A stretch of DNA of 62,212 bases from Patescibacteria group bacterium. GTDB taxonomy: Bacteria > Patescibacteriota > Gracilibacteria > UM-FILTER-43-11. A program made the position numbers and the translations under genes. The notes beneath the pieces were generated by a model. The model did no database searches. It saw only the letters and a program-made list of their open reading frames with translations, and had not been told where the DNA came from. This document shows, piece after piece, positions 46,601 through 59,870 of this stretch; position 1 is the first letter of the stretch, and each line of letters begins with the position of its first letter. The stretch is from contig JAJDCF010000007.1 in assembly GCA_029260955.1 (NCBI GenBank), positions 1 to 62,212 on the forward strand, read 5' to 3'.

Positions 46601-49600
46601 TATCCAAAATATCCACGTACATCTTGCCAATTTCAGGTGGGGTGTTCTCGTATTTTTCAACAGCATCAAAATTCAAGGCCACTTTTTTACTGATCAAAGT
46701 CTGCATGGTTTTTTGATCGAAGGCCTGTAGCAATAGTTCATTATTTGGGAATTCCACATAAACGATTTGGCTTTGTCCCGTGGTGGTGATCAGATGATTA
46801 GGAGCAATGCTCACTGTTGTTTCTGGGGTTGGTGCACTCAAGAATGAGTAAACTGCTTCAGTTTTTCCTCCAAAAAGATGAGTGCCACCAAAGTAGTTTT
46901 CTTGGGTAAAGTCACCTGCCGGGAATCCAACAAAAGACGCAAACAAGTTTTGTGGGTAGGTTTTTTCCCAGTCGGCTGAATCCACTCTGGCTAGCAGTGG
47001 TATATCCACTTGTGCCCCTCTCAGGTCATCATGAGTGGCAATTAGTTTTATGTCGGCGGTTTCTTTTCCACCCTTAATTATTGCAGTTCCAACTCCTTTG
47101 ATCATGACGACATATGGACTGACCAAGCTTGCAAACTCCGCAGATTTTTCATCGAGTTGAACGCTTATAGTTCCGTTGAAATCTTCTCCCGGAAAACCAA
47201 AATTGTCGGCTGCAAGCACTTCCATTTCTACTTCTTTTCCAATGGGAATGTATGGTGGGGCCCTCAAGATTATTTGAGTAGCGGCAGCGCCTGTTGGATG
47301 AATCACAAATGGTTCTCCGGTAATACCAGGAGTTTTGTCTTTGCTAATCAGTGTTATAGTTTTTTTGCCTGGTGTTGGAATGAATTTGATTGTACCTTTT
47401 CCGTTCAATAGCTTTACTTGTCCGCCATTTTCAAATCCACCATCGGCTGGCTGCTCTGGACCAATTGCAAGGGTATCGTTGATATTAGTTATGTGGCTGC
47501 CGTCTGGTTTTTTTAAGGTTACCGAAATTGTGAATTCTGATCGCCCTGCTTTAATCTCTTCTGTCGCTCCCCATCCGATATCAACGCTGTCGTAAACATT
47601 AATAGTGATTTCACGATGTTTCTTATTTTCCGGCAGGCCATCCATGGTGATTTTCAGTTTGCTGGAGCCGGTTTTTTTGGCGGTGAATTTAATTTCTCTT
47701 TCGCCAGTGTAGATATAAACATCTTTGCCTTTGTTTGAGAATGTCCCCAGGCTTGGATCATCTAACACAAGTTTTATAGGCATGTCGATGTATCCGAGTA
47801 CAGGTTCACCTTTTTCGTTCAGGGCCGAGATTTTGATTAATTCCTCTTGTCCCGGAACCAAGCTTTTTCGTTTCATCTGCACATCAAAGGTAGCAGCAGT
47901 AGAGAGTATTTGATCAAAGATATCTTCTGACTCTTCTTCCTCTTCGGGTGGAAGAGGAGCTGCACTACAGCTGTTATCAAGTTTAAAAAGTTCTTCTGCT
48001 GGCAAAATTTCTTCTTCAATCCAACACTGAAGGGCCTCGAACCATTCCCAAATTTCTACACCGGCTGGGTCTCCACAAAGATAGTTACCATCTCCCTCTC
48101 CATCTCCAGTTCCATCTCCGCCATCATCATCAGCGTCGGGACCACCCGTCCCTGTCCCATCGCCATCACTCTCATCGCTGGCGGAACTAGGTGCCTGAGC
48201 TTGCATGGCTCTGTTAAGTCCAAATTGGTACCCTTGCGCATCACCGTCGGCCACAATATGCAGCACTTCGTACCCCTCTGGTTTGTTTTGTGGTGATTTT
48301 CTTGGGTTGTAAAATGGGGTTGGCATGACACTGTCTCTGTCTACATATTTGGGAATGATGTCAGCCAGTTTTTGGTCGATGCTGGCAGCTCTCCAGATGA
48401 CGGGCTCGATGATTTCGGCATTATCAACAAAGAAATCCTCAAAAAGATTGCTTTGTGCAGTTGTTTTTGTGTTGAGTTCTTGCTGTTTTTTAGCTATTTG
48501 ACTGAGCAAGTTCTTAGTTATTTCCTCTTGATTGTCCCCATCTACTCTAAAAAGATTTAGGTATTCAAAGGCTTGCTTTAGCCCATTTTTAGCAAAAGAA
48601 ATATATCTAATTCCGTCAGCAGGAATGCTTGGGGTGGTGAGTTGCGGGAATTTAACTTGTCCAGTTAGGGGGTCCATCCGTGGTTCTCCAATATGTTTGA
48701 TGGCTTTGATGGTTTCGTTCGTTGGTTCAACGTGAGCGTAAAGTGTGTCGATGTTCTTTTTTTCAGTCGTTACGCTTATATCAATTTCCACCGATGGTAT
48801 AGGTGAATAGCTAAGTTCTTGTCCGCTAGCAATCAATCTTTGTACCACAAAAGATCCCTTCGTAATTGGGTCGGCATTGGGAAAATTTCCATGTAAATCC
48901 TCATACGCCTCATCGATTACTTCGGTGAGGGTGGTGTCTAGGCTTATTGGCACTACCAGTCCTGAGGCGGCTACAGAAAAGTACTGAAGTATGTTCGGCA
49001 ATCTAAAAGTCATTTTCTGAATGTCGCATCGGCCTGCTAAATCTACCGCGTCTTCCGCTTGTGCTTCTATGGAACCGAGAATGTCGTAAATAGATCCGGC
49101 TGCCAATGTTGGCTGACACTTGTTTGGACTGCTACCAGTTTCCTCTATCGTCATACTGTTGTTAAAAACACAGCCTGCATATTTTTTGTACGTTTCTGAC
49201 TCTGCTAATTCCCATTCATCATCGTCATCCGGTGGTGTCAAAAGAGTATCCGGATTGTACATGCGGTTGGCATTGACCATCACGGAATTATTTTCTAAAA
49301 CGGATTGTCCTTCCTGCCTTTGCTGCCCAACTTTTATGCCACATTGTGGAGAAACCAAGATATCACTGGCCTTTTGACCATCAAAATAGCCGTCAAAATC
49401 AAATGTATTACTGTCTATCTCAATTCCCAAAATACTCATTTCTACTTTTAGCTTGGCTTTGGTGAATATATTTTCTTGTCTTGCTCCAAAGCTGACATTA
49501 TTCTGGATGAACTCATCAGTTTCCTTTTCCAAAATCAATTGCTTACGTTTGATCTGATATTTGCCGTATTCGTCGCGCATGGTAATAAGAGATTCGGGAG

Positions 49601-50624
49601 AATCCACTTCGGCAGGGCTCCAGCGCCCAGTTCTTTCAATGCTTTCGTTAATGCCGCTTCTATAAATTTTGAGGGCTTCGGCAAAGTTGTAGGCGTATTT
49701 CTTGAATATATTCTCAGTATGAACATCAAACATGTTGTCGATGGTGCTATCATCCATAATTGGACTGTCGGGACTTCCCAAGTCTGTACTCACATCTTTC
49801 ACCATTTCTTTGAGCAGATGTTTGTTGAAACGATTCATGACTAACTCCTCCATGTATTTTATATAGCGACCGTAATTACTGTAATCGATGTAATTCATCT
49901 GTTTTTCCATTTCTGGAAAGTTGGCGTACAGCATTCGTTTCTCAAAATCAGCAAATATCGGATTGCCTGTACTGAATTCATAATTCTTATCAAAATAGGC
50001 TATTAATTCTTGTTTAGCGGTGCTTGGGTCCTTACTTGGTGGCACAATTAGGCCATGCCAAACTTCGGGTGTTGGTGCACTAACGTCTGCATTTGCTTCA
50101 AACTGACCTGTTTCATGATTGTAAATATATGCTTTCCGGTAAAAATCAGTGTAGGGGTAAATACTTGGAGCCGTCATTCCATCATCTTCGTGTACGACTG
50201 GAATTGGCACATCCCCGATTAGCACCACACCAAGTAATTGATTGTTATCCTCCTTTTTGGAGTTATTGTTGAGCGGGTTGCCGTCAATTTGATCAGTATC
50301 TATGCCTTCGAAATAGAGTTTTTCCAGCATGCTGGCAATTCGGAAGGTGGATTCGTTTTTGTCGACCTCCAAAACAAAAGACTTGGAATGAGGTGTCCTT
50401 TTTTGTGCGCTGTTCGCGTAAGTCATGATCCTTCCTCGCATGTCAAAATCATCCATCAATCCGTCTTCGACAAGAATGGCTATAAGGCCTAATTTGTTCA
50501 GATCTTCATTTTCGGCTGGATTTATGGTCTGTACAGGTATTTGCACATCCTCAATTTCGGCTTGTGCAAGTGCTTTTTGTACGACAAAATCCTGAAATGG
50601 CAAATAGTCTAGGTAATTTCCCAA
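37662..50624 (-). CDS. Giant mosaic surface protein (4,320 aa as tracked; the true start is probably further upstream)
   Basis: Uninterrupted 12,963-nt ORF. Modules read from the translation, with approximate nt ranges:
- Asp/Gly-rich linker, 48075-48190.
- Ig-like beta modules, 46985-47885.
- FG-GAP/VCBS-like repeats, 45650-46030.
- DUF11-like repeat (LEETLTYTITINSG..ADTVPDSL), 45000-45290.
- Two Pro-rich hydrophobic blocks, 44200-44540 and 42650-42930.
- Long helical region, 41400-43900.
- Three SLH domains, 38520-39089.
- Two TSP3-like Ca-binding modules, 37854-38519. Confidence 0.9.
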   Translation of the reverse strand: MGNYLDYLPFQDFVVQKALAQAEIEDVQIPVQTINPAENEDLNKLGLIAILVEDGLMDDFDMRGRIMTYANSAQKRTPHSKSFVLEVDKNESTFRIASMLEKLYFEGIDTDQIDGNPLNNNSKKEDNNQLLGVVLIGDVPIPVVHEDDGMTAPSIYPYTDFYRKAYIYNHETGQFEANADVSAPTPEVWHGLIVPPSKDPSTAKQELIAYFDKNYEFSTGNPIFADFEKRMLYANFPEMEKQMNYIDYSNYGRYIKYMEELVMNRFNKHLLKEMVKDVSTDLGSPDSPIMDDSTIDNMFDVHTENIFKKYAYNFAEALKIYRSGINESIERTGRWSPAEVDSPESLITMRDEYGKYQIKRKQLILEKETDEFIQNNVSFGARQENIFTKAKLKVEMSILGIEIDSNTFDFDGYFDGQKASDILVSPQCGIKVGQQRQEGQSVLENNSVMVNANRMYNPDTLLTPPDDDDEWELAESETYKKYAGCVFNNSMTIEETGSSPNKCQPTLAAGSIYDILGSIEAQAEDAVDLAGRCDIQKMTFRLPNILQYFSVAASGLVVPISLDTTLTEVIDEAYEDLHGNFPNADPITKGSFVVQRLIASGQELSYSPIPSVEIDISVTTEKKNIDTLYAHVEPTNETIKAIKHIGEPRMDPLTGQVKFPQLTTPSIPADGIRYISFAKNGLKQAFEYLNLFRVDGDNQEEITKNLLSQIAKKQQELNTKTTAQSNLFEDFFVDNAEIIEPVIWRAASIDQKLADIIPKYVDRDSVMPTPFYNPRKSPQNKPEGYEVLHIVADGDAQGYQFGLNRAMQAQAPSSASDESDGDGTGTGGPDADDDGGDGTGDGEGDGNYLCGDPAGVEIWEWFEALQCWIEEEILPAEELFKLDNSCSAAPLPPEEEEESEDIFDQILSTAATFDVQMKRKSLVPGQEELIKISALNEKGEPVLGYIDMPIKLVLDDPSLGTFSNKGKDVYIYTGEREIKFTAKKTGSSKLKITMDGLPENKKHREITINVYDSVDIGWGATEEIKAGRSEFTISVTLKKPDGSHITNINDTLAIGPEQPADGGFENGGQVKLLNGKGTIKFIPTPGKKTITLISKDKTPGITGEPFVIHPTGAAATQIILRAPPYIPIGKEVEMEVLAADNFGFPGEDFNGTISVQLDEKSAEFASLVSPYVVMIKGVGTAIIKGGKETADIKLIATHDDLRGAQVDIPLLARVDSADWEKTYPQNLFASFVGFPAGDFTQENYFGGTHLFGGKTEAVYSFLSAPTPETTVSIAPNHLITTTGQSQIVYVEFPNNELLLQAFDQKTMQTLISKKVALNFDAVEKYENTPPEIGKMYVDILDTDYVTLKNNNGLQIRNLYNEVIANLQPNGAYINDSNFTWEYESQPEYNVIELKLTNGLVTPARVLISLNPETIEPGDFGDINPGLKWNTTYGGTSTNDPTGLTFFAQNAEVPEVIRNEFYGLEDKQKYLSLFASGTNAGDAVKFNMPANAILLGDPTIKLKTKSTSSLNYNRATGQQIYEDAESKQIASINHFNFNNDGNQDIALLTEDGRVRLLEGGATEPPYKDKGNIAFLVDGGVALESFDFDKDNYEDLLVATDAGRLAILHNDKEVITRSDHKLNIGKKMYKILKGDMDQDGYGDLVILDSRGDIYIFYYDPAKGKFPENGKWIANYGYSLKLDANLNTDLDIRYTGMSEPSEPGQEPGNEVVPPGGKPPLEGYEIGGNVPDFLTLPFIQGQTDATKAAAENPVAAAQNSGGVPKLPWPEGDETETYFAPIESVGSLSVSKKVSNKDRPDSENVDLEETLTYTITINSGANLNNVIIADTVPDSLAFDKNSVTCLQGGCQSMEAKKNSIKAFFSGLNLSAGQTTIISYDVFVAHTPEADVLLQRINEPNENLPNPNSIIDEYLDILASPPYNNTGKLLLHYTTGPRSYATTESNDPEPPESSDALNDFGDLMNQMKAHSGGNFSKDFPPPEPKIGASYGDVLDEITGNNDCFEDVSNFGDDITSVGCAEEVLDDIGEAIADFSCMGGGCFPMPFNRAFLVPPDFAMPIFAFPTTLPTPIGPMPFFDVFHAITPIGAASIPGPIMSAIRLYLSPTLTGGIGIAMCWGPYPQAPAVPPPVWPIPYPPPVGNCMVTALPVDDLFAGACSTLRDEVFIPLMDLISSGINKVNSTVNDINNNPNIPGSIEQGGPDQGAGGLEISLAVNLGESMKFDPPAKAFSNTHIPTFDSIGGVISGWFDRQTMEIKNKLLTLPTFSIFLPDVKSLFTSDFQKTEKEFESWKNTMSGSMSETLNAIDKISQSKDESNTSSSKTVIQNIKSGMQDVSGSKVLQYVDAIETQASIYNLNALEGLYDVASTLPLVRLTEKPIQFDIPWLSAAEIQAWIMEAQNWVVYYEREYARVKDKWEALTCDDKPDVVDGGSLSENSAECVGRHLADAFGLNLDPLINSVKENIEVLQSYLAFPKQLVKFKQQLADYIRQVACHLDVVAQMMGGWMATIQQQMVSWAELILTIVAIIDNIEELFDLFTNFDANCDICTNERYANFGWWMLLGIVLPEIPIIQFPKIPDIVLDMSNMDALIDIELPVLNIRTKPIPLPPLPYITLPDLPSISILLTLPPLPILPRLPELPDLPPLPPIPTIDLPTLPVPPKLPDVAQAFEAIIPIIEKVLEIWCIMKKSFAPVPEQMLNDQITLLTNRPAYLIPLDLLKIQLPDIALFDIGFNELRIETIVYLGLRLNVASKPLEKLSEDWNGWIAEIPIAMNKAYSEYIEVIEKDFQALLDDVEEGMAKIADTISEGCIEYDWEADECVQTLQGAIDDSLGKKLEEADKWLRDKEGEWQAFADEIGSDLSYEEYYKAINSANETVNKWSGEAADKLKKWFAENADWIGWITPMAKIFEYIDEGTPADELQEILDLVAEKINESLVAGPTVLTRLSICLHAWPDCKNNKEAYFGDDKEASATINPELPKENKLIAQVPPIQSQPVTSPQISEEEYAKQILNTPQGHEIRSLLTKMTEAIDEVNENEMVDYKVLKEKFGVPDYKPLPRKTTVDKLRLMEQELIKHSDQLMAEAVGQKHITDLNAIAGKPPRSALPYELAEATLNPENNEIKVFTSALPPKALAKSDENPVSKAFMKLEERVERTVGQISGSEGEAPAGGLSGGCPAAVCLPDTITKKPVPVIPHIDLIGSSETLFMPNGHLAYSDGTGLYLKRDLTLVDDDKNTDTGNPKRYEFDEIASQLHISEQPMEAVNMLQTTFTENGASTFTWKPTAHSDIYGYGIELERTISGYDSNKQNNQLADTKIILLPADDEGETPAVTADDQPISFGTLVTSLTNKEEAAKKFGVSPRNIVTGVSEVRFPTVSNALINVSENKAVYFDQLTGSSYNMSMENGYYQIKMTWFDQYANIASYNQNEILAPQIYASSADPIDVSQTDTYYMPIFKDKEIRASEIFVDLAGDYNYYWFLNPETNTLTPEVGNTLNIAGQNEEKKFKVKLVATQNIEDNSFETFEKTFTVIVYIPTINLDPEQLGEGIIAGDMEPIQRAAGDDLSDIPFSVFRKRLGTWKNIGILRAEDTDKTATSPALDTEQHYFSVASDGSYNIEGFELLDPSPILLKDHEGNVVAEVEPDSGLINLNDPSFDIKAVPGGTEYPTHIAIIKRETEELLGNVYYIADTTNNVTIKDSSLTLSNVESSGVTVGDANASDDVVAAVIPVNGPSFPGGVAIFEDGAQENVALVDKDGTIRMMKAGYELRIKNKTSGDGKYIFQIVTSGGSPIYDIFIQANFDNLQVDNSTDMDSLNTQIGFLKPVDTAFAQSTPETSTEIDTTPVPGFQFEIEEPREVEGNPFPDVDESHPFFSQILELYKSRVISGYGDGSFKPDQKLTRAEFIKIALGVTNCVDCTTPNAAVKEKYTSNPFPDVSLPSWYFYCISIAKELGMITGYGDGFFRPERNISRAEAAAVLLRQSGIEIVEAPENAFVDVPEYAWYVDYVYTAVEIGLIQSNFGVVGPDVEITRGEFAFMAAGVKDLSECRIVDTDDDGVPDWWEMTHDMDIFTPDADRACPCYDSPWTLDTDGDGKKDVCDLDIDNDGVLNPLCIFTDTGEIDPKKLAEGVLTLGSPLDNCIFDPNEDQVDFDTNTIGNICEEEPILPIEPIELCECSDNPNMNDTDEDGIRDVCDDDIDSDGILNPICIFDESGLLDPSKLAVESAEGAEGVEIVEIDNCIFVANSDQVASACEATDLCPTIPEDIDGVDDEDGCPELNDNFPAKDPGVYVGPGELCGFVDFTTGFMAEDRFMTAITDLETHEILLSESTEVIFSK
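37854..38519 (-). other. Tandemly duplicated thrombospondin-type-3-like Ca-binding / Cys module at the C-terminus of the giant protein
   Basis: CPCYDSPWTLDTDGDGKKDVCDLDIDNDGVLNPLCIF...DPKKLA...DNCIFDPNEDQV, repeated as CECSDNPNMNDTDEDGIRDVCDDDIDSDGILNPICIF...DPSKLA...DNCIFVANSDQV. Confidence 0.7.
38520..39089 (-). other. Three SLH (S-layer homology) domains within the giant protein
   Basis: NPFPDVDESHPFFSQILELYKSRVISGYGDGSFKPDQKLTRAEF; NPFPDVSLPSWYFYCISIAKELGMITGYGDGFFRPERNISRAEA; FVDVPEYAWYVDYVYTAVEIGLIQ...EITRGEF. I verified the Asn codon of the first NPFPDV at 39087-39089. Confidence 0.8.
45650..46030 (-). other. FG-GAP/VCBS-like (integrin-alpha-type) repeats within the giant protein
   Basis: NFNNDGNQDIALLTEDGRVRLL; DFDKDNYEDLLVATDAGRLAIL; GDMDQDGYGDLVILDSRGDIYIF. 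This is the D-x-D/N-x-D-G-x-x-D Ca-binding loop followed by a beta strand. Confidence 0.65.
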
Positions 50625-50794: not shown

Positions 50795-50871
50795 GGGCGG
50801 TTAGCTCAGTTGGCTAGAGCGCGGCATTGACGTTGCTGAGGTCAGAGGTTCGACTCCTCTACCGCCCACCA
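50795..50871 (+). tRNA. tRNA-Val(GAC)
   Basis: 77-nt cloverleaf: GGGCGGT-TA-GCTC-AGTTGGCTA-GAGC-G-CGGCA-TTGACGT-TGCTG-AGGTC-AGAGG-TTCGACT-CCTCT-ACCGCCC-A-CCA. Anticodon GAC. CCA is encoded. Confidence 0.9.
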
Positions 50872-51031
50872 CCCATCACTGAACTACTGCCTACGAATGA
50901 ACCTCTGGTAAGGCTCTTTCTTCGGCATACGTTCAGTTCTGGGTCCCACCCCGTAAAATCCTTCTCGTCCTCACTTTGTTCGTCCTGCGATTGAATTTTG
51001 CGGGGAGCCCGTTTTTTTTGGGCGGTAGTAC

Positions 51032-51059
51032 TTGTCTTTTTATGCGAATCTGGTACAAT
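51032..51059 (+). promoter_or_regulatory. Candidate extended -10 promoter of the signalling operon
   Basis: TTGTCT (51032-51037), 16-nt spacer ending in TGG, TACAAT (51054-51059), about 58 nt upstream of the histidine kinase ATG. Confidence 0.45.
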
Positions 51060-51116: not shown

Positions 51117-53090
51117 ATGTCTTCAATTTCTCATATCAAAGGCAAGAAAATAGTTAAGGCTAAGCTAAAGCTTAAGAAGCCTCATAGTGAGACTTGTTTA
51201 GAGAAGGTTCAAGGTACTCATACATGTATGGCTGCTTCGCAAGAAATGTACCGGGATTTGGTTGAAATGGCGCATGAGGGGATCACTATGGTTGATCCGG
51301 ATGACAATCTGACTTTTGTTAATAAGCAATTTGCTAAGAGCTTGGGCTATAAGGTGAATGAGCTTGTTGGTCGTACTCTCTTTAGCCTTTCCACAAAAGC
51401 GTCGGCCACAATGATGAAGAAGGAGACAGAGAAGCGGAAAATGGGTAAGAAATCACGTTATGAAGTAGTGATGTTTCATCGAGACGGAAGTAAAAAGTAT
51501 TTTTGGCTTTCTGCTAGTCCCATGTATGGTCCTTCGCGAGAATTTATTGGCTCCATGGGAGTTTATGCAGATTTGACGGAAAAGAGGGTAATGGAGGTTA
51601 AGCTTAAGAGAAAAGTCCGACAAATCGATACTCTTTATAAAGTTTATGAGCACGCAAGAATGGTTAAGCCCTTGGGTGTGGTGCTCAATGGAATTACACA
51701 AGAAGTGTGTCAGGCCCTTCCTTCTGCCAAGCATGTTCAAGCCAAGCTTGTTTTTGATCAGAAGACTTACACATATCCAAAAAAGCTTAAGAGTTTTGTT
51801 AAAAAAATTGAGGTTCCACTAGAGATCGTGGGCATTAAAAGAGGGGTGTTGCAAGTTGGTTATAATAAAGTTTTGCCCAATATAGTTGGCGAGGATTCCT
51901 TGAAAGAGGAGAAAAAGCTGGTTAAGAATGTAGCTAAAATTCTTTGCAAGCATATGTATGCTCGCGGAGTTCTAGATCGTCATAGAGTGATTATTCAAAA
52001 GGCTTTTACCGCCATTATCATTGTTAATGACAAAAAAATTGCCTACGTAAATCCTAAGTTTTATAGGATGTTCAAGTGCAAAGAAGACCAGGCAATTGGT
52101 GAGAAGATTCGGAAGTTCTTGCCGAATTGCACTTCTCAGTGTGGGATGGATAGGAGGGTGCGAGAGTGTATTGGCAAACGTTTAACCGGGGAAAACATTG
52201 ATTTGGCGATGATTACGCAGCGCATTAGCTATCATGGTAAGCCTTCCACTCTAATTCGTGTTAACGATATTTCTGCACTGAAGAAAGCTCAGGCAAGGTT
52301 GAGCGGCTTTAATCAAGAGCTGCAAAAAACAGTGAAAGAAAAGACGCTTCATTTGGAGGAGGCAAATAAGAGACTTCAGTCTATCAATCAGCTTAAGGAT
52401 GAGTTTATTGCCATTACTTCTCACGAACTTCGTTCGCCTCTTACTTCGATACGGGGGTATCTCTCTTTTTTGGTTGAGGAAGAATCCATCGAGCAGATTT
52501 CTGATCCCTATCGGGAATATTTGATTCGAGCCTATAGCACAACCGATTCTCTAAACTATCTGATCAACAATATCCTTGATGTTTCTCGCTTGGATATGGG
52601 CCGTTTTCAACTGCAAAGGCAGGATACTGACATCATTAAGCTCACCTGTAATATTTTGGAAAGTCTTTCTTTTCAAATGAGTGAAAAGCGACTTGAACTT
52701 GAATTTGATAATTGCACTGGCCAGAATCAGCTCATTATCTCTATCGATTCGATTCGTATGTCTCAAGTTTTCAGAAACATTCTTGATAATTCCATTAAGT
52801 TCACTAAAAGGGGCAAAAAAATTAAAGTTTCAATCAAGTATCAAGCTAAAGGCAAGGGTCTTTGTATTTCTGTTGCTGACCAAGGTGTTGGAATACCTAA
52901 GGCTAAATTGGATCAGATTTTTGATAAGTTTATGCAGGTCAAAAACACTCATACGAAGTACAAAGGTGGTGTTGGATTGGGACTTTTTATTGCTAAGAGA
53001 ATTGTTGAATTGCACAAGGGGCAAATTAAAGCCGTTAAGAATATCGATGGAGGAACCACCATATCAATTCATTTGCCTTTAACCGATTAA
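51117..53090 (+). CDS. PAS-domain sensor histidine kinase (cytoplasmic; no TM helix evident)
   Basis: PAS-like segments (YRDLVEMAHEGITMVDPDDNLTFVNKQFAKSLGY...; IIQKAFTAIIIVNDKKIAYVNPKFYRMF...). H-box ITSHELRSPLTSIRGY, N-box RNILDNSIKFT, G1 VADQGVGIP, G2 GGVGLGLFIAKRIV. Confidence 0.9.
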   Translation: MSSISHIKGKKIVKAKLKLKKPHSETCLEKVQGTHTCMAASQEMYRDLVEMAHEGITMVDPDDNLTFVNKQFAKSLGYKVNELVGRTLFSLSTKASATMMKKETEKRKMGKKSRYEVVMFHRDGSKKYFWLSASPMYGPSREFIGSMGVYADLTEKRVMEVKLKRKVRQIDTLYKVYEHARMVKPLGVVLNGITQEVCQALPSAKHVQAKLVFDQKTYTYPKKLKSFVKKIEVPLEIVGIKRGVLQVGYNKVLPNIVGEDSLKEEKKLVKNVAKILCKHMYARGVLDRHRVIIQKAFTAIIIVNDKKIAYVNPKFYRMFKCKEDQAIGEKIRKFLPNCTSQCGMDRRVRECIGKRLTGENIDLAMITQRISYHGKPSTLIRVNDISALKKAQARLSGFNQELQKTVKEKTLHLEEANKRLQSINQLKDEFIAITSHELRSPLTSIRGYLSFLVEEESIEQISDPYREYLIRAYSTTDSLNYLINNILDVSRLDMGRFQLQRQDTDIIKLTCNILESLSFQMSEKRLELEFDNCTGQNQLIISIDSIRMSQVFRNILDNSIKFTKRGKKIKVSIKYQAKGKGLCISVADQGVGIPKAKLDQIFDKFMQVKNTHTKYKGGVGLGLFIAKRIVELHKGQIKAVKNIDGGTTISIHLPLTD

Positions 53091-53101
53091 TACTGTAGCT
53101 C

Positions 53102-53503
53102 ATGGCTAAAACTTCAAAAAATGTTAAGGTGCTGATCGTTGAAGATAACGCGAATATCTGTGAAATGTATGCGGTTACTTTTATGCGTCGAGGTTTTACA
53201 GTTTACACAGCTCCCGATGGTCGGAGCGCTATACAAAAGTACCAGAACAAGAAGCCTGATATCATTTTGCTGGACATCATGATGCCTCATGTTGATGGCT
53301 ATAAGGTGTTAAGCGAAGTGCGAAAGGACGTGAATGAGTACACTCCGGTGATTATGCTTACGAATCTGGATGCTAATGATTTTGCCAGGGAATCGCAGCT
53401 CGAAAATATAGATGCATACCTTATAAAATCACATCACAGTCCCCGAGAGGTGGTTGATAAGACTATTGAGGTGCTTAGAATCAACAATATTGCAGTCGAA
53501 TAG
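53102..53503 (+). CDS. Single-domain response regulator (REC only, CheY-like)
   Basis: VLIVEDN acidic pocket, phospho-acceptor Asp in IILLDIMMP, and AYLIKS conserved Lys. At 133 aa it has no output domain. Confidence 0.9.
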   Translation: MAKTSKNVKVLIVEDNANICEMYAVTFMRRGFTVYTAPDGRSAIQKYQNKKPDIILLDIMMPHVDGYKVLSEVRKDVNEYTPVIMLTNLDANDFARESQLENIDAYLIKSHHSPREVVDKTIEVLRINNIAVE

Positions 53504-53568
53504 CTTGAAAAAAGCTCTGTTTTATGCTAAAATAATAGGAAATAATTTTATTTTAGTAATAATTAATT

Positions 53569-54054
53569 ATGGCTGGACCAGAATCACAACCAGAGGTGTT
53601 AAGCCAAGAAGATGTTAATATTCAAAAAATGGGGGGATTCATGCCTGAAAAGAAGGCTGAGGGAACTTCAGGTGGGGCGGAGGACAAGGAGCAGAATGAG
53701 GCACTTCAAAAGAAGGCGCGAGATATGTTAGGCAAGAAACTAACTGGCGCAGTAAAGCACGTAATGAATGACCCTGAAGTTAAGGATCTAATAGATGAAT
53801 ACAAAAATGAAGGAGCTGTTCGTGAGAAAGATTTGAAAATGGTCTATGCTAAGCTTAAAATGGCTGGGACGGATTTCATAAATGGCCTCTTGAATGATCC
53901 AAATTTTCCCGGTGTAGAACATCTAGTATATAGCGACGGTGAAAGGAGTGGTGCTTATTCAGAGCGGGGGCTATTGAAGTTGGGTAATATTGCTTGTGGG
54001 ATAGATGCCGAAGCGAATGATAGTGGCGGAATTACCATTACAACACCAAAGTAA
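53569..54054 (+). CDS. Hypothetical protein (161 aa) inside the signalling cluster
   Basis: ORF only. No motif recognised. Confidence 0.45.
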   Translation: MAGPESQPEVLSQEDVNIQKMGGFMPEKKAEGTSGGAEDKEQNEALQKKARDMLGKKLTGAVKHVMNDPEVKDLIDEYKNEGAVREKDLKMVYAKLKMAGTDFINGLLNDPNFPGVEHLVYSDGERSGAYSERGLLKLGNIACGIDAEANDSGGITITTPK

Positions 54055-54081
54055 TAGCTTAAGCGATATGAATATTATATT

Positions 54082-54924
54082 TTGAGCTGTGTTAGTTTGA
54101 TAAGTGATACCTCTGAAAAAATAAAAGTGCCAAAACACAAAATTGAATTCACATTACCGTCTGATCTAAAGTTCTCCGCTCTTGTGCGGCGAATTTCTGA
54201 GGAAGTATTTCATCATGTTGGCTTTAACAAAGAATGGGCTGGTCGCCTCAAACTTGTGGTTGATGAACTTTATATGAATGCTGCTCGATATGGCTCCACG
54301 ACGGATGATGACAAGATTTATCTTCTCTTTACCTTTGATGAAAGTGAAATTAGTTTTCGAATTGAAGATGAAGGAAAGGGGGAAAGAAAAACGAACGCAG
54401 AGGATCTAAAAAAATTGATAAACAAAAATACTGGTGAGGTGACTGATGTGACTAAAACAAGCGGTAGAGGCCTTGCTCTGATTTCTAATTTGTGGACCGA
54501 TGGTATGACGATAGAAGATAGTGAGCATGGCGGAATTGCCATTACTTTTACAAAGAAAATTTCTGTTGACGCACCACCACCACCTCCACCAATGAAGGCA
54601 GTTGAACTGGAATCTGCTGTTCCTACAGCTCCACAAGGTGCAAAAGAGGAAATGAAACTTTCGGGTGAAATTGATGCTGCTAATCTTGAGGAGAAGGTGA
54701 AGCCTGTCAGTGAAAAGGTTACAGCTTTGCCGGTCGGAAGCACGCTTGTGTTGGACTGTGCAGACCTCGTTTATATCAATTCAACTGTTATTGGACACAT
54801 GGCTGGCTGGCTCAACGAGCTTCAGGCAAAACAAGGCCATTTGGTACTAAAAAATACGAATGAACAAATTCGAGAAGTGCTCGATTTGGTCGGAATTAGC
54901 AAAGTAGTTTATTTGGAATCCTAA
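54082..54924 (+). CDS. Fusion protein: RsbW/SpoIIAB-like anti-sigma Ser kinase (GHKL ATPase) plus C-terminal STAS (RsbV/SpoIIAA-like antagonist) domain
   Basis: N-terminal half: N-box ELYMNAARYG, G1 EDEGKG, G2 GRGLALI. PPPPPPP linker. C-terminal half: STAS-like MKLSGEIDAAN...LVLDCADLVYINSTVIGHMAGW...LVLKNTNEQIREVLDLVGI, with Ser/Thr at the usual phospho-acceptor position (INST). TTG start. Confidence 0.72.
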   Translation: MSCVSLISDTSEKIKVPKHKIEFTLPSDLKFSALVRRISEEVFHHVGFNKEWAGRLKLVVDELYMNAARYGSTTDDDKIYLLFTFDESEISFRIEDEGKGERKTNAEDLKKLINKNTGEVTDVTKTSGRGLALISNLWTDGMTIEDSEHGGIAITFTKKISVDAPPPPPPMKAVELESAVPTAPQGAKEEMKLSGEIDAANLEEKVKPVSEKVTALPVGSTLVLDCADLVYINSTVIGHMAGWLNELQAKQGHLVLKNTNEQIREVLDLVGISKVVYLES

Positions 54925-54926
54925 GT

Positions 54927-56114
54927 ATGCGATTTATTCGAAAAAGCATCATCGGAAAAGCCATTTTCTTTCTCATTGTACTATTGGGAGGAATTGTAGG
55001 TGGTAGCGTCTACTTGCGCAACAACGGCATGACGGAGCTTCCATCTGATTGGGTTTTGTATGGAATGATTGGAGTCTTGCTTCTAATTTTCATGGTCTTT
55101 GTGTGGGATATTTTTATTCCAATTTCTAAAGTAACTAAGCAGGTTACCAGCTTGCTAACGGGTAAGGAATATAAGCGAATTACTCCAACAACTATTGACG
55201 AAGTCGGTGTATTTACTCACTTTTTCAACGAGATTACTCAGGATCTTGAAAAGATTTCTTACGATGTGAAAGAAAGGCGTCGTATGTCTTCCGAATTGGA
55301 TATTGCATCCAACATTCAGCGCGATGTACTGCCAAAGGAAGCCCCAGAGGCTCCAGGTCTTGATGTAATGGCTAAAACCCGTTCGGCGGCGGAGGTTGGG
55401 GGTGATACTTTCGACTTTTTGACCTCAGCTGATGGTAGCCAGGTTTTTATCTACATCGGTGATGTTACAGGCCATGGTGTGCCATCTGGACTTATTATGA
55501 TGATGGTTGATACAATTGTGGAAGCCATGGTTTATCAGGGTGTTGCGAGTGGGCAGAAGCTTGTTACTCATACCAATTTCCTTCTACACCCACGCATTGC
55601 CTCACGTCTGTTTATGACTTCTGTAATGCTCAGGTGGGACAAGTCAAATCAGCAGATGTATTACACGGGAGCCGGTCATGAGCACATTCTGATTTACCGC
55701 AAAAAAACAGAAGAGGTTGAGTCAATCGCATCGGGCGGAATTGCTTTGGGAATGATTCCTGATGTGAGTAAGATTGCCCAGGAGAAACCGGTTTCTTTAG
55801 AGATAGGTGATTGCCTTGTTTTGTATACCGATGGTATTACCGAGGCAAAAAACCATACTGGTGAAATGTATGAATTAGAAAGGCTGAAAAAGGCCTTGAA
55901 GAAAAATGGCTACAAGCCATCTGTTGACGCTGTTTTTGATGGTCTGACCAAGGATTTCTCAGATTTTGTGGAGGAATATGTTCAAATAGACGACATCACA
56001 ATGATTGTGATCAAGTACATGGGTAAAGATTTTGCTTCTCAAAAAGTGAAACTTACGGTTAGTAAGGCTGATGAAGAGGGTGCTGCGAAGAGCAAAAAGT
56101 GGGACTGGAGCTAA
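54927..56114 (+). CDS. Membrane-bound HAMP-PP2C (SpoIIE/RsbU-type) serine phosphatase
   Basis: Two TM helices and a HAMP-like linker. PP2C/SpoIIE motifs: ASNIQRDVLP, GGDTFDF, IGDVTGHGVPSGLIMMM, YTDGITEA. Starts 2 nt after the fusion gene. Confidence 0.85.
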   Translation: MRFIRKSIIGKAIFFLIVLLGGIVGGSVYLRNNGMTELPSDWVLYGMIGVLLLIFMVFVWDIFIPISKVTKQVTSLLTGKEYKRITPTTIDEVGVFTHFFNEITQDLEKISYDVKERRRMSSELDIASNIQRDVLPKEAPEAPGLDVMAKTRSAAEVGGDTFDFLTSADGSQVFIYIGDVTGHGVPSGLIMMMVDTIVEAMVYQGVASGQKLVTHTNFLLHPRIASRLFMTSVMLRWDKSNQQMYYTGAGHEHILIYRKKTEEVESIASGGIALGMIPDVSKIAQEKPVSLEIGDCLVLYTDGITEAKNHTGEMYELERLKKALKKNGYKPSVDAVFDGLTKDFSDFVEEYVQIDDITMIVIKYMGKDFASQKVKLTVSKADEEGAAKSKKWDWS

Positions 56115-56130: not shown

Positions 56131-56724
56131 TTAATCAAGGTGCTTAGTGCAGTTGGAGCACACTATTTTGTGATTTTTATCTTCATCAATTTCAAATATA
56201 TTAACGCTGGTATTGTGTTGATTGTCAACATCTTGAATATCTTCATGCTTTTTGTTTGATATTACAGCTATCAGTGCCTTATTAATGCCATTGTGCCCAA
56301 CTAACAATACAGTTTCGTCATGATGCTTTGCGATTGTCTCATGGAGAAATCTTTCTACCCTGCGATATAGCATTTCCATATCTTCACCCTTTTTTGGTTG
56401 AATTTGCGTTACTTTGGAATCTTTTGCATTCCAGCCAAAATCGCTTTTTTTCTTTCCTTGAAATTCTCCTAAATTTCTTTCCCGTAAATCCTCTACGAAT
56501 TTAATTGGGGTTTTTGGGTGTAATTTCGCAATTTCTTTTGCAGTATCAGAAGCTCTGGCCAGATCACTTGAATAAATGAAATCAATTTCTTCATCCTTTA
56601 ATCTTAGGGCTACTTTTTTAGCCTGATCTACTCCGGTTGCAGAAAGTTTTCCTGGCAAATGCCCTTGCAAAATACCAGCTCTATTCTCTTCAGTTTCGCC
56701 GTGTCTTGTTATGATGAGTTTCAT
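56131..56724 (-). CDS. Histidine phosphatase (phosphoglycerate-mutase-like superfamily)
   Basis: LIITRHGETEEN (RHG motif) and VGHNG (second catalytic His). Start set at the ATG at 56724, which forms an ATGA overlap with the glycosyltransferase stop. Confidence 0.85.
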   Translation of the reverse strand: MKLIITRHGETEENRAGILQGHLPGKLSATGVDQAKKVALRLKDEEIDFIYSSDLARASDTAKEIAKLHPKTPIKFVEDLRERNLGEFQGKKKSDFGWNAKDSKVTQIQPKKGEDMEMLYRRVERFLHETIAKHHDETVLLVGHNGINKALIAVISNKKHEDIQDVDNQHNTSVNIFEIDEDKNHKIVCSNCTKHLD

Positions 56725-57827
56725 ACATTTGTTATTAACCGATAAACTTCCTCTGCACATTTCTCCCAGGAGTATTTTTCGAGCTGTCTTGAATACGTGC
56801 TTATCAATTCTTTATTTGAATCCGGATTGTCTGCAATTTGCTTCATCAGTTTTGCAAGTGCCTGAGCATCTTCTTTTTCAAAAAATAGGGCGCTTTCACC
56901 AGCAACTTCTTTTGAGCTTGGAATATCTGATGCGATTATTGTTACGTTTGCATCCATGGCTTCCAGTAGCGGAATTCCGAAGCCCTCAAAGCGAGAAGGA
57001 AAGATGAAGCTAAGGGTATTTTTCAGAAGTACAGCTTTTTCTGTTTCGCCAATATAGCCAGTAAAAGTGATTCGATGTTTTAGTTCGGCGGGAATATCTT
57101 TTATTATTTTTTCACCGCCATGCCCTGGGAAGCCAGCTAATACAAGTTGAATATCTTCATTATCCTGGGCAAATTCACCAAAAGCTTTAATTAGCGTGTC
57201 AGTGTTCTTTTTATATTCGATGCGGCCGATGAATAAGAAGTATTTTTTTGGCTTAAGAGAGAATTTCCCCAATATTTCTTCTTCGTCCATGATCTCTGCC
57301 TTGGTAGGTGTGAAGCCAAGAGGAATGACTGAGATTTTATTGGAATCTGCCCCATAAAATTTGATTAGGTCCTGCTTGGTTGCCTCAGAGGGGGTGATGA
57401 TTCTTTTTGCGTTCTTTACGGCAAATTTGGTAGCCCAATCTAGGTAGATCCGTGAAAAAATTCCATAGCTTTCCGGTGAATACTTAAACACCACATCGTG
57501 AATTGTGATAGTGGATTTTTTAGGGTAGATAAGCGGAAGAACGTGTGAAGGCACAAATAGATTATCTATTTTTTTGCTTTTAAAAATCTCCCAACTCAGT
57601 CGAATTAGTGTCCATAGTCTGGGAAACGGTATGACTATTTGCTTTACATCTAATTCGATTTTTCTTGGGCTGATTAGGGTGATATTTTCACCGTGTTGCT
57701 TAACTAGTTCATTGATCAAATAATAAGAGTAGTTTTCGACTCCGGTTTTTCTTCCAGTGTTTGAGTAGCGGGACGCGTCAATGTAAATCATAAGACTAAT
57801 TAGGTTTGCCATTCTGGCACTCATCAT
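56721..57827 (-). CDS. Glycosyltransferase, GT4 (GT-B fold)
   Basis: C-terminal EGFGIPLLEAM (EX7E region). The true start may be the internal Met at 57791 (MIYIDASR...). Confidence 0.85.
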   Translation of the reverse strand: MMSARMANLISLMIYIDASRYSNTGRKTGVENYSYYLINELVKQHGENITLISPRKIELDVKQIVIPFPRLWTLIRLSWEIFKSKKIDNLFVPSHVLPLIYPKKSTITIHDVVFKYSPESYGIFSRIYLDWATKFAVKNAKRIITPSEATKQDLIKFYGADSNKISVIPLGFTPTKAEIMDEEEILGKFSLKPKKYFLFIGRIEYKKNTDTLIKAFGEFAQDNEDIQLVLAGFPGHGGEKIIKDIPAELKHRITFTGYIGETEKAVLLKNTLSFIFPSRFEGFGIPLLEAMDANVTIIASDIPSSKEVAGESALFFEKEDAQALAKLMKQIADNPDSNKELISTYSRQLEKYSWEKCAEEVYRLITNV

Positions 57828-57865: not shown

Positions 57866-58252
57866 ATGGCTGATGATTATCAATTTGATGACTTAGATTC
57901 TGCTTTAGACGCTAAGGAAGTGAGTGAGACAAAAACTGAAGAGAGTAGTGCTACTACTACTGACCCCGTGTCAGAGCCAGTAGCTGAACCTGCTGCTGAC
58001 CCTGTTGCTAGTACAGCAAGTGCTGGAAGTGGAGGTAATACTGGTGGTGGAAACGGTTATGCTGCTGAATTATTCTCAAAGCAAATCAAGGCTAAATTCC
58101 GTACTTTCTTTATTGATTTGAAAGAGAGCTCCAATGGCAAATTTATCAAAATTAGCGAAAAGAGCCATGGTCGTAAGAGTACGATTATGATGGATGCAGA
58201 AGATGTTCCAGTCTTCATTGAGGCACTTAAAGAAGTAAGTGATCATCTCTAA
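57866..58252 (+). CDS. PUR-alpha/DUF3276-like nucleic-acid-binding protein with an acidic disordered N-terminus
   Basis: The C-terminal 65 aa, LFSKQIKAKFRTFFIDLKESSNGKFIKISEKSHGRKSTIMMDAEDVPVFIEALKEV, fits the single PUR-repeat pattern (RTxFFDxKE...I.E....k..I.....d...F...L). Confidence 0.55.
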   Translation: MADDYQFDDLDSALDAKEVSETKTEESSATTTDPVSEPVAEPAADPVASTASAGSGGNTGGGNGYAAELFSKQIKAKFRTFFIDLKESSNGKFIKISEKSHGRKSTIMMDAEDVPVFIEALKEVSDHL

Positions 58253-58307: not shown

Positions 58308-59870
58308 CTATTTTGCCATATCCGTGGCCCTTGTTTCTCTTATTACCTGAACTTTGATGGTGCCTGGGTAGGCCAGCTCCGCTTCAATCTTTCTGGCAAT
58401 TTCATGAGAAAGCTTGATGGCAGCCATGTCGTCTACTTTTTCGGGTCGTACGAATACACGTACTTCACGACCAGCCTGAATAGCGTATGCCTTATCTACA
58501 CCGTCAAATGAGGTTGTAAGGTTTTCCAGTTCCCTAAGACGCTTGATGTAGTTTTCTACATTCTCACTTCGAGCTCCTGGTCTGGATGCTGAAATAGCGT
58601 CAGCTGCCATGATTACAAATGCCTCAGCGGTGTTGAGTGAAATTTCCTCATGATGAGCCTCTACTGCGTGAACCACTGCTTCTGGAAGGCCATATTTCCT
58701 AAGGATGTCAGCTCCGATTAGAGCATGACTACCTTCTATTTCGTGATCGACAGCCTTACCAATGTCGTGCAGGAATCCTGCTACCTTGGCCACATGTGGG
58801 TCAGCTCCAATACTGGCTGCCAGATGACCAGCCAAAATACCTACCTCCATACTGTGCTTTATCACATTCTGACCATAACTGGTTCTAAAGCGAAGTCTTC
58901 CAATAATCTTAATCAAATCAGGATGTAGCCCCGTAATACCCATTTCGAAAGCGGCTTTTTCGCCGAATTCTTTCATCATTTGATGTACTTGCTCCTTGGT
59001 TTCTTCGACCACGGTTTCAATTCTAGCTGGGTGAATACGTCCGTCTTCTACTAATTTAGTCAGCGCTCTTTTAGCAACGTAGCGACGCACCAAATCAAAA
59101 CCAGAAATCATAATTGCGTTTGGCGTGTCATCTACAATCACATCAACGCCTGTAAGATGCTCAAAGGCATTAATATTGCGACCTTCTTTACCGATCACAC
59201 GACCCTTAATGTCGTCACTAGGTAGTTCGACAATGGTTTGTGTGGATTCAGAAGTTACATCTGAAGCAAGTTTTTGAATGGCCTGAGCTAATACATTTGT
59301 AGCTTCCTTTTGGGCACCTTCCTTAACTTCCTCATTCATTTTTTTGTAGTGGCTGACCAGCTCATCTTTGTAATCACGTTCCATGTTATTCAGAAGCATT
59401 TGCCTTGCTTCATCTTTGGTGAGCTTGGTGATATTGGCTAGCTTTTCTTCCTGCTGTTTGTAAATCGCTTCCAACTTTTCTTCATCTACTCTTAGATCTT
59501 CCCCTCTTTTTTCATAATTTAGCTTGGTCTTTTCTATCTCTGTTGTCTTCTTTTCCAGAAGATCTTCTTTAGAAATAAGGCGTTCTTCTTGCTTCTCAAG
59601 TTGACGTCTCATGGCTTGCCCTTCCTTCTTCGTCTCTTCGACGATTTCTAGGGCGCGTTTTTTTGCATCAAGGATTTTTTCCCTGAGCTTGCTCTCTGCT
59701 ACGGAAGCTTTTTGCTCAATCTCTACAAGTTTCTTTTGAGCGTGAGATATCTTTTTTTCATTGGCGTCCTCAATCTTTTTCAGATGTTTATTGCCTTCAG
59801 ATTTGAAATAAAGATAAACCCCAGCAACCCCAGCAATCATACCGACTAGTATGTAAATGATGGTGTTCAT
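58308..59870 (-). CDS. rny: Ribonuclease Y
   Basis: N-terminal TM helix, long coiled coil, KH domain (GRVIGKEGRNI) and HD domain (HSMEV...LHDIGKA). Length 520 aa. Confidence 0.95.
   Translation of the reverse strand: MNTIIYILVGMIAGVAGVYLYFKSEGNKHLKKIEDANEKKISHAQKKLVEIEQKASVAESKLREKILDAKKRALEIVEETKKEGQAMRRQLEKQEERLISKEDLLEKKTTEIEKTKLNYEKRGEDLRVDEEKLEAIYKQQEEKLANITKLTKDEARQMLLNNMERDYKDELVSHYKKMNEEVKEGAQKEATNVLAQAIQKLASDVTSESTQTIVELPSDDIKGRVIGKEGRNINAFEHLTGVDVIVDDTPNAIMISGFDLVRRYVAKRALTKLVEDGRIHPARIETVVEETKEQVHQMMKEFGEKAAFEMGITGLHPDLIKIIGRLRFRTSYGQNVIKHSMEVGILAGHLAASIGADPHVAKVAGFLHDIGKAVDHEIEGSHALIGADILRKYGLPEAVVHAVEAHHEEISLNTAEAFVIMAADAISASRPGARSENVENYIKRLRELENLTTSFDGVDKAYAIQAGREVRVFVRPEKVDDMAAIKLSHEIARKIEAELAYPGTIKVQVIRETRATDMAK

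Follow-up and report, generated by a model that had tools for sequence, protein, structure and literature searches.

The 62,212-nucleotide stretch analysed here (the window) spans positions 1 to 62,212 of contig JAJDCF010000007.1 from assembly GCA_029260955.1, a Patescibacteria group bacterium placed by GTDB in the Gracilibacteria. Between positions 51117 and 56114 it carries five open reading frames (ORFs), all on the forward strand, which encode a sensor histidine kinase, a stand-alone receiver (REC), an orphan protein of 161 residues, a protein that joins a GHKL serine kinase to a STAS domain, and a membrane-anchored PP2C phosphatase. The kinase-STAS fusion is genuine, conserved and undescribed in this group, and its family is centred on the Peregrinibacteria and related Patescibacteria. 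We favour reading the module as a tethered-antagonist partner switch that would receive two-component input and act on a target encoded outside the window, with a probability of roughly 0.55. The first-pass annotation, made from the letters without database searches, had described this co-directional cluster; it was recovered at the same coordinates, and every annotated Pfam domain scores above its curated cut-off. From 5' to 3' the intergenic gaps measure 11, 65, 27 (72 with the GTG start at 54127 discussed below) and 2 nucleotides. The features are the following:

51117..53090, forward strand: sensor histidine kinase of 657 amino acids; by Pfam, PAS in two stretches, HisKA (E = 2e-15) and HATPase_c (E = 4e-29)
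53102..53503, forward strand: REC-only response regulator of 133 amino acids; Response_reg (E = 2e-21) is the sole Pfam domain
53569..54054, forward strand: orphan ORF of 161 amino acids, between the REC and fusion genes
54082-54924, forward strand: fusion ORF of 280 amino acids; HATPase_c_2 and STAS by Pfam
54127..54573, forward strand: RsbW/SpoIIAB-like GHKL Ser-kinase domain of the fusion, residues 1-149 (265-residue numbering)
54574..54639, forward strand: Pro-rich flexible linker of the fusion, PPPPPPMKAVELESAVPTAPQG, read directly from the DNA (predicted local distance difference test, pLDDT, 54-60)
54640..54924, forward strand: RsbV/SpoIIAA-like STAS domain of the fusion, residues 172-265, with the stop codon
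54927-56114, forward strand: membrane-anchored PP2C of 395 amino acids; SpoIIE (E = 6e-43), with the SpoIIE/PP2C domain at residues 170-363

The fusion ORF is open from a TTG codon at 54082, and its start is most likely the GTG at 54127, to judge from P0001 and most other homologues, which would give a protein of 265 residues; this shorter numbering is used below. In the 280-residue ORF, HATPase_c_2 covers residues 26-151 (53.5 bits, cut-off 27.4) and STAS residues 192-276 (40.2 bits, cut-off 22.6), and STAS_2 is matched as well. Throughout an alignment of 40 sequences, the N-box (E47/N51), the G1 box (D81-x-G83-x-G85) and the G2 box (G113-R-G-L116) of the kinase are invariant, and so is the STAS motif Y216-x-N218-S219. 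The candidate phospho-serine is Ser219 (Ser234 of the 280-residue ORF, nucleotides 54781-54783). The first-pass annotation had picked out the INST motif to which it belongs, and this serine indeed proved invariant in that alignment of the family and aligned with Ser56 of RsbV and Ser58 of SpoIIAA (PDB sequence alignments 6m36_B and 1th8_B). It lies at the N-terminus of a helix that AlphaFold predicts at residues 219-234 (helix alpha-2).

AlphaFold, run on the same alignment, gave a model with a pLDDT of 85.8 and a predicted TM-score (pTM) of 0.77, in which low confidence is confined to the ATP-lid region and the linker. The docking of the two halves onto each other appears to be defined in this model, as a pTM of about 0.5 would be estimated for independent domains of 145 and 95 residues. 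With Foldseek, the N-terminal half matched SpoIIAB (1til_E, 1th8_A), RsbW (6m36_A, 6m37_A) and an anti-sigma-F chain (8ih8_D) with target TM-scores of 0.71-0.92, and the C-terminal half matched RsbV/SpoIIAA with an rmsd of 1.6-2.6 A. The NCBIfam models that match the fusion are those of RsbW, SpoIIAB and anti-sigma-factor antagonists, all far below their cut-offs. Pfam, AlphaFold and Foldseek thus bear out the initial description of an RsbW/SpoIIAB-like kinase joined to a STAS domain through a Pro-rich linker. The linker itself had been given as seven prolines (PPPPPPP) and has to be corrected to six: its codons read GCA CCA CCA CCA CCT CCA CCA ATG, in a continuous frame and without a homopolymer run. 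In relatives the linker is longer, with up to about 45 additional residues in the alignment (P0079).

A single polypeptide of this kind could in principle be produced by a frameshift, a missed stop codon or a mis-assembly that joins two neighbouring genes, and one related contig (L034) shows that errors or pseudogenes do occur in the family: an in-frame TAA interrupts its kinase domain. Nevertheless, that stop is situated inside the kinase domain and not at the domain boundary, the frame across the linker of the window's gene is open, and the same architecture is found elsewhere. Among 5.8 billion proteins searched, 138 relatives were recovered, and 118 of the 120 listed contain both domains, at 40-76% identity; the listed homologues come from NCBI, JGI, ENA and Logan assemblies, and those with names are Candidatus Peregrinibacteria or Patescibacteria. 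Among GTDB species representatives, 22 loci were found, in metagenome-assembled genomes (MAGs) of Peregrinibacteria, Peribacteria, Gracilibacteria or Patescibacteria, or in MAGs titled 'bacterium'. An exhaustive profile search of 1.84 billion representatives recovered about 60 full-length fusions at 50% clustering, along with kinase-only relatives and some proteins with the reverse order, STAS-GHKL. An artefactual origin of the fusion is therefore scarcely conceivable. The initial description would have failed if the first half had lacked the GHKL fold, if the second half had not been STAS, or if a frameshift or missed stop had joined two genes; each of these was tested and none was found.

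Some of the relatives call for comment. The stop codon of the L034 contig (L034:2344-3144) is at codon 104 of the fusion, in the ATP-lid region of the kinase, and the same contig has a broken RNase Y gene; it accounts for P0087, an apparent 'STAS-only' protein, which was accordingly rejected as a natural split of kinase and STAS. The stop is probably a sequencing error or the mark of a decaying copy. In the divergent fusions P0165, P0194 and that of L030 (L030:1-8954), tryptophan occupies conserved glycine positions (SGRGL reads HWRWL, for example), which would fit relatives that have recoded UGA (Gracilibacteria/Absconditabacteria), with genes called under the wrong code. In four proteins of about 260-275 residues (P0229, P0235, P0248 and P0257), the RsbW-like kinase is C-terminal (residues ~125-265) and another stretch is matched as well; these look like STAS-GHKL fusions in the reverse order, similar to the CapK-like family.

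The last gene of the cluster adjoins the kinase gene in all of the 28 distinct related loci that were tabulated, the window included. Its PP2C motifs GGD and GDVTGHG are invariant, and hydropathy places two hydrophobic segments at residues ~9-31 and ~41-67, separated by a minimal loop on the outside, about nine residues long. The best NCBIfam match is SiaA (E = 5e-16; 58.3 bits against a cut-off of 700). It had been described as a membrane HAMP-PP2C phosphatase; the membrane segments and the PP2C domain hold, while the HAMP part is supported weakly. No Pfam HAMP match was found in this protein at E <= 0.1; residues ~27-124 give partial NCBIfam matches to TM2/HAMP regions of histidine kinases (E = 4e-4 to 1.7e-2) and the orthologue in L006 has a weak HAMP match, so that a HAMP-like linker can be placed, with weak support, at residues ~68-120.

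The proposed input genes are upheld by Pfam as the PAS-PAS histidine kinase and REC-only regulator that the first-pass annotation had described. In the histidine kinase, one PAS domain lies at ~43-155, a second PAS-like stretch begins at ~293, and HisKA (427-494, with the H-box SHELRSPL) and HATPase_c (544-656) follow; the N-terminus has no hydrophobic segment and the kinase is cytoplasmic. The REC protein has its phospho-acceptor at Asp58 (nucleotides 53273-53275). E14/D15, D58 and K109 are invariant in 21 orthologues, as is the threonine of the VIMLTN motif (85-87), and by these residues the protein is to be regarded as competent as a receiver. It is also the most constrained protein of the module, with a ratio of nonsynonymous to synonymous substitutions (dN/dS) of 0.012 between L019 and L021.

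The three features that define a partner switch at the sequence level are found in the module: a HATPase_c_2 kinase with intact N, G1 and G2 boxes, a STAS serine at the start of helix alpha-2 and a cognate PP2C of the SpoIIE family. On that basis it would be expected to work like the RsbU/RsbV/RsbW switch. In classic partner switching, the kinase, the antagonist and the sigma factor are separate proteins. The module resembles the RsbU-RsbV-RsbW and SpoIIE-SpoIIAA-SpoIIAB systems of Bacillus in its HATPase_c_2 kinase, STAS serine and SpoIIE-type PP2C, with the folds of 6M36, 1TH8 and 1TIL, but differs from them in that kinase and STAS form one polypeptide, the PP2C is anchored in the membrane, neither the operon nor the window contains a sigma factor gene, and the equivalog models score far below their cut-offs. 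It is also distinct from the stressosome (RsbR/RsbS/RsbT/RsbX), as the sole STAS domain of the window is fused to the kinase and no RsbR-like protein was found.

Covalent linkage of kinase and STAS is not without precedent, and the novelty that the first-pass annotation had implied is smaller than stated, given Rv1364c and CapK. The Mycobacterium tuberculosis protein Rv1364c (PAS-PP2C-GHKL-STAS) has been reported to phosphorylate and dephosphorylate its own STAS domain at Ser600 (PMC7693655, PMC10950880). The window's fusion has the GHKL and STAS domains in the same order within one chain, and Foldseek matched it to 3KE6; yet it is a compact protein of 265 residues, its PP2C is a separate membrane protein and PAS domains are found on a separate histidine kinase, whereas Rv1364c has PAS and PP2C at the N-terminal side of the same chain. 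The two are not close in sequence either (3KE6, E ~2e-3, query TM-score 0.36), and within the family a covalent PP2C is found only in L011, where it is C-terminal. CapK (HTH-STAS-GHKL) has a separate STAS substrate that bears a winged helix-turn-helix (wHTH) domain, and CapK-CapS are regulators of defence operons (EMBO J 2026, PMC13373217). There, a kinase with a STAS domain of its own acts on a separate STAS protein, which resembles the majority of the present family, where the fusion is accompanied by a free STAS protein; a PP2C is not described in the source passages. The domain order of CapK is nevertheless the reverse of GHKL-STAS, and in the window there is no HTH domain, no STAS-wHTH substrate and no defence operon.

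Two-component control of partner switches also has precedents. In RsfS-RsfR of M. smegmatis and HptB-HsbR-HsbA of Pseudomonas aeruginosa, a histidine kinase or phosphorelay acts with a receiver to control a PP2C/GHKL pair, whose substrate is a STAS serine; RsfR and the response regulator PA3346/HsbR are REC-PP2C fusions, so a REC domain can control a phosphatase/kinase pair. RsbK-RsbY of B. cereus and SypE-SypA of Vibrio fischeri are likewise driven by two-component systems, with RsbY and SypE as further REC-PP2C precedents. The window shares with this class a nearby histidine kinase, 11 nucleotides upstream of REC, but differs in that REC is a stand-alone protein of 133 residues, whereas in the RsbY/RsfR/HsbR/SypE class it is covalently joined to PP2C and sometimes to the kinase; the domain fused to the kinase here is STAS. 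The phosphatase finds its counterpart in SiaABCD of P. aeruginosa, in which SiaA, built like the window's enzyme, has two transmembrane segments, HAMP and PP2C, and a kinase/STAS-like pair, SiaB and SiaC, has a target other than a sigma factor (PMC7647112). That system differs, however, in that SiaB and SiaC are not joined in one chain, the operon includes the gene of the target, the diguanylate cyclase SiaD, and a histidine kinase-REC pair is lacking; no GGDEF protein was found in the window. Some two-component-driven partner switches have non-sigma outputs, and sigma-less partner switches are established (SiaABCD, HptB-HsbR-HsbA, All4160/HenR), which makes the lack of a sigma factor in the operon not unusual.

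In the reading that we favour, the GHKL domain would phosphorylate the tethered STAS domain at Ser219, either in cis or between the subunits of a dimer, and the membrane-anchored, HAMP-like PP2C would strip this phosphate. Unphosphorylated STAS would dock on the kinase domain and occlude it, while phosphorylated STAS would leave it free for its target, so that the fusion would make a tethered switch with a 1:1 stoichiometry. The PAS kinase would phosphorylate REC, and phosphorylated REC could modulate the PP2C and/or the kinase by direct binding, the stand-alone REC replacing the covalent REC-PP2C arrangement of RsbY, RsfR, HsbR and SypE. We infer an action of REC on the phosphatase from the conserved adjacency of the genes and the REC-PP2C fusions of other systems. 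The output would be the sequestration, by protein-protein binding, of a target not encoded in the window, which could be a sigma factor (perhaps the primary one) or an effector of another kind. This mechanism is based on motif conservation, the docked AlphaFold model, the gene order and characterised systems that have these domains in covalent linkage. L011, where kinase-STAS and PP2C read as one ORF, also speaks for it.

Several observations weigh against this reading. All NCBIfam matches of the module proteins are below the curated or equivalog cut-offs, and they are so far below them that the proteins are to be considered members of the superfamilies and not equivalogs. The other observations come from the related loci. 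The order histidine kinase-REC-fusion-free STAS-PP2C is found in 17 of the 28, and the fused STAS may therefore not be the main substrate; the free STAS proteins have about 117-136 residues, and the equivalent serine is conserved in them within an F-x-[DNS]-S-K motif. Moreover, the fused serine is replaced by E, H or D in the divergent fusions P0190, P0167 and P0163. One possibility is thus that the fused STAS is a tethered pseudo-substrate, an auto-inhibitory domain or a scaffold, and that the true substrate is a separate STAS protein, which in the window's genome would be encoded elsewhere or have been lost. The divergent loci L029, L032 and L033, which pair the fusion with a free STAS but have no PP2C, histidine kinase or REC nearby, fit this view, as does CapK, which has an internal STAS and phosphorylates a separate STAS protein, and as does the retention under purifying selection of kinases that lack STAS altogether. 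Yet, the fused serine is invariant in the Peregrinibacteria clade, which would not be required of a pure scaffold, there is no other STAS domain in the 62-kb window, and Rv1364c is a precedent for a tethered STAS as a true substrate. We regard this explanation as a serious contender, if an unlikely one. It follows that the fused STAS, presented in the first-pass annotation as the substrate of its kinase, was overstated in that role: it is a conserved candidate in the clade, alongside a free STAS in most loci, with its serine lost in some relatives and the domain itself absent from others.

The free STAS gene is missing from eight of the 28 loci, the window among them; they comprise L011 and a sub-clade whose G1 box reads D-E-G-x-G. 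In the sub-clade of the window its absence is read, from this distribution, as a loss. In three further loci the fused STAS has also gone, and a kinase-only gene is followed by the PP2C gene 10-14 nucleotides downstream. The STAS-less kinase genes are located at L019:6001-6450, L021:6001-6450, L035:3466-3945 and L036:3102-3581; those of L019 and L021 stop before the linker, whereas L035/L036, tabulated as one locus, still have a remnant of the Pro-rich linker and share only 66-68% identity with L019/L021, from which the fused STAS would have been lost at least twice, independently. Between L019 and L021, the dN/dS is 0.13 for the STAS-less kinase (dS 0.45), 0.14 for the histidine kinase and 0.05 for PP2C. 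Such low values indicate that the STAS-less kinase and the PP2C are working genes under purifying selection; the pair, judged by this conservation, has a function independent of the fused STAS, which also counts against the proposed mechanism, and its persistence argues that the fused STAS is only part of the explanation.

RsbT activates RsbU in the sigma-B pathway of B. subtilis, and a similar logic could apply here: the kinase domain would bind the adjacent PP2C, the tethered STAS would play the role of RsbS, and the output would be the activity of the PP2C. The adjacency of kinase and PP2C genes in every locus, including the three without STAS, would be expected under this scenario, and the cluster encodes no other target. 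It would also agree with L011, where a single ORF of 685 residues (L011:5989-8046) comprises kinase-STAS, a 12-residue junction and transmembrane-HAMP-PP2C, and where the free STAS gene is missing; that ORF is either a natural triple fusion or the product of a lost stop codon in one MAG. Nevertheless, the kinase domain is closest to RsbW/SpoIIAB in NCBIfam and PDB comparisons and gave no RsbT match, the N-terminus of the PP2C, with its transmembrane segments and HAMP-like linker, is not of the RsbU type, and the fused STAS is the sole PP2C substrate visible in the window. An RsbT-like logic consequently seems quite improbable.

The loci differ in their input genes as well. Histidine kinase and REC precede the kinase gene in 21 of the 28, but both are absent at L015 and L028, and also at the more divergent loci L029-L033 (L029, L032 and L033 have a free STAS only, L030 and L031 a PP2C only), and L020 has REC without the histidine kinase. 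These absences argue against the tethered-antagonist switch with two-component input as a fixed unit and leave room for the histidine kinase and REC as a separate two-component system that happens to lie beside the partner-switch genes, the more so as REC has no output domain and no sequence tie to the PP2C. This is unlikely, however, since the order histidine kinase-REC-fusion-(STAS)-PP2C and its short gaps are kept in 21 loci whose fusions descend to about 40% identity with that of the window, and since REC-PP2C and REC-PP2C-kinase fusions elsewhere link these domains functionally. Judged by its distribution, the constant core is the kinase domain with STAS and/or PP2C, and the histidine kinase-REC pair is an addition of the Peregrinibacteria clade.

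The absence of a sigma factor from the cluster, pointed out from the letters, holds and extends to the whole window: Pfam searches of 30 further ORFs and six-frame phmmer/hmmsearch scans of stop-to-stop segments of at least 35 amino acids detected no sigma-70-family protein, no second STAS and no second RsbW-like kinase in the 62 kb. Other candidates for the target or role were considered and rejected. A role in defence, as for CapK/CapS, is contradicted by the housekeeping neighbours and by PADLOC, in which neither the fusion nor the PP2C had a match and whose only hits in the window are generic histidine kinase and REC domains. The conserved GT4 glycosyltransferase downstream, suggested by analogy with All4160, has no STAS domain, and the synteny of GT4, PurA-like and RNase Y genes is missing in L005, L013, L016, L018 and L022, which keep the module. 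In L030, rpoB-ssb-rpoC directly precede the fusion and PP2C genes; this RNA polymerase neighbourhood is not repeated at the four other divergent loci and is no more than a weak lead.

Alternatively, the module could be a closed, sigma-less hybrid in which REC itself is the switch partner of the kinase domain. In that case, the phosphorylation state of STAS would sequester or release REC, or phosphorylated REC would displace STAS, and the output would be the availability of free receiver. We consider this a long shot. If true, it would represent a minimal regulatory design specific to genome-reduced bacteria of the candidate phyla radiation (CPR), and it would explain the survival of the kinase without any STAS in some lineages.

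The remaining gene of the cluster, the 161-residue ORF between REC and the fusion, had been set down as unknown, which agrees with our searches: it has no match in Pfam, NCBIfam or PADLOC and only insignificant ones in PHROGs, no homologue but itself among 5.8 billion proteins, and it is absent from all 27 related loci. Only in frame 0 does it show native codon usage (+0.37 bits/codon, compared with -0.55 and -0.64 in the other frames), and AlphaFold, from the single sequence, gave a poor model (pLDDT 56). It may be a young, lineage-specific gene within a conserved operon.

Upstream, the operon is bounded by a tRNA gene, followed by predicted signals:

50795..50871, forward strand: tRNA-Val(GAC), upstream boundary of the operon (ARAGORN, Rfam)
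51000-51012 and 51032-51059, 3' of tRNA-Val: terminator-like hairpin with T-run and promoter-like site, respectively (consensus scan)

The counts of terminator and promoter consensus sites were not above those of shuffled controls, and these predicted sites are suggestive only. In the whole window, Rfam detected only tRNAs (n = 2). The surroundings are ordinary chromosome, with genes for phosphofructokinase, glyceraldehyde-3-phosphate dehydrogenase, aldolase, Mur ligases, MurJ, RelA/SpoT, trigger factor, iPGM, RNase Y and an SLH protein. A tyrosine recombinase (336-1178, forward strand; Phage_integrase with a SAM-like N-terminal domain) adjoins the glycolysis genes. A large surface protein of 1404 residues, with SLH domains by Pfam, is encoded at 16862-21076 (forward strand), and an ORF of 4320 residues occupies 37662-50624 on the reverse strand; L001 and L004 have SLH-domain giants of 4257 and 4314 residues, upstream of the module and divergently oriented.

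Downstream, between the PP2C and GT4 genes, is a His_Phos_1 histidine-phosphatase gene (56131-56760, reverse strand) that none of the related loci has. As annotated, its ORF overlaps that of GT4 by 40 nucleotides, and its true start is probably the internal methionine of MKLIITRHG. Together with the 161-residue ORF it is, in this comparison of loci, peculiar to the genome of the window. A small nucleic-acid-binding protein of the PurA-like family (PF04845/DUF3276) is encoded at 57866-58252 (forward strand) and RNase Y at 58308-59870 (reverse strand). In all syntenic relatives, the PurA-like gene accompanies those of RNase Y and the GT4 glycosyltransferase on the downstream side of the module; the acidic N-terminal extension is longer in the window's protein (128 residues against 94-117).

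Covalent kinase-STAS proteins, two-component-driven partner switches and sigma-less partner switches were all known already, and existing knowledge is not overturned. What is distinct is a family of compact GHKL-STAS fusions, accompanied in the window by a stand-alone REC and a SiaA-like membrane PP2C; in the literature searched, we found no relevant paper on partner switching in CPR bacteria or on the sigma factors of Peregrinibacteria. CPR bacteria have very small genomes and few regulators, so that a module of four to five genes, conserved across the Peregrinibacteria and their relatives, probably ranks among their principal sensing circuits. Since the same kinase and phosphatase occur in the family with two, one or no STAS domains, this natural series allows the contribution of the antagonist to be probed, and it also bears on the effects of tethering, that is, a fixed 1:1 stoichiometry and phosphorylation in cis versus in trans.

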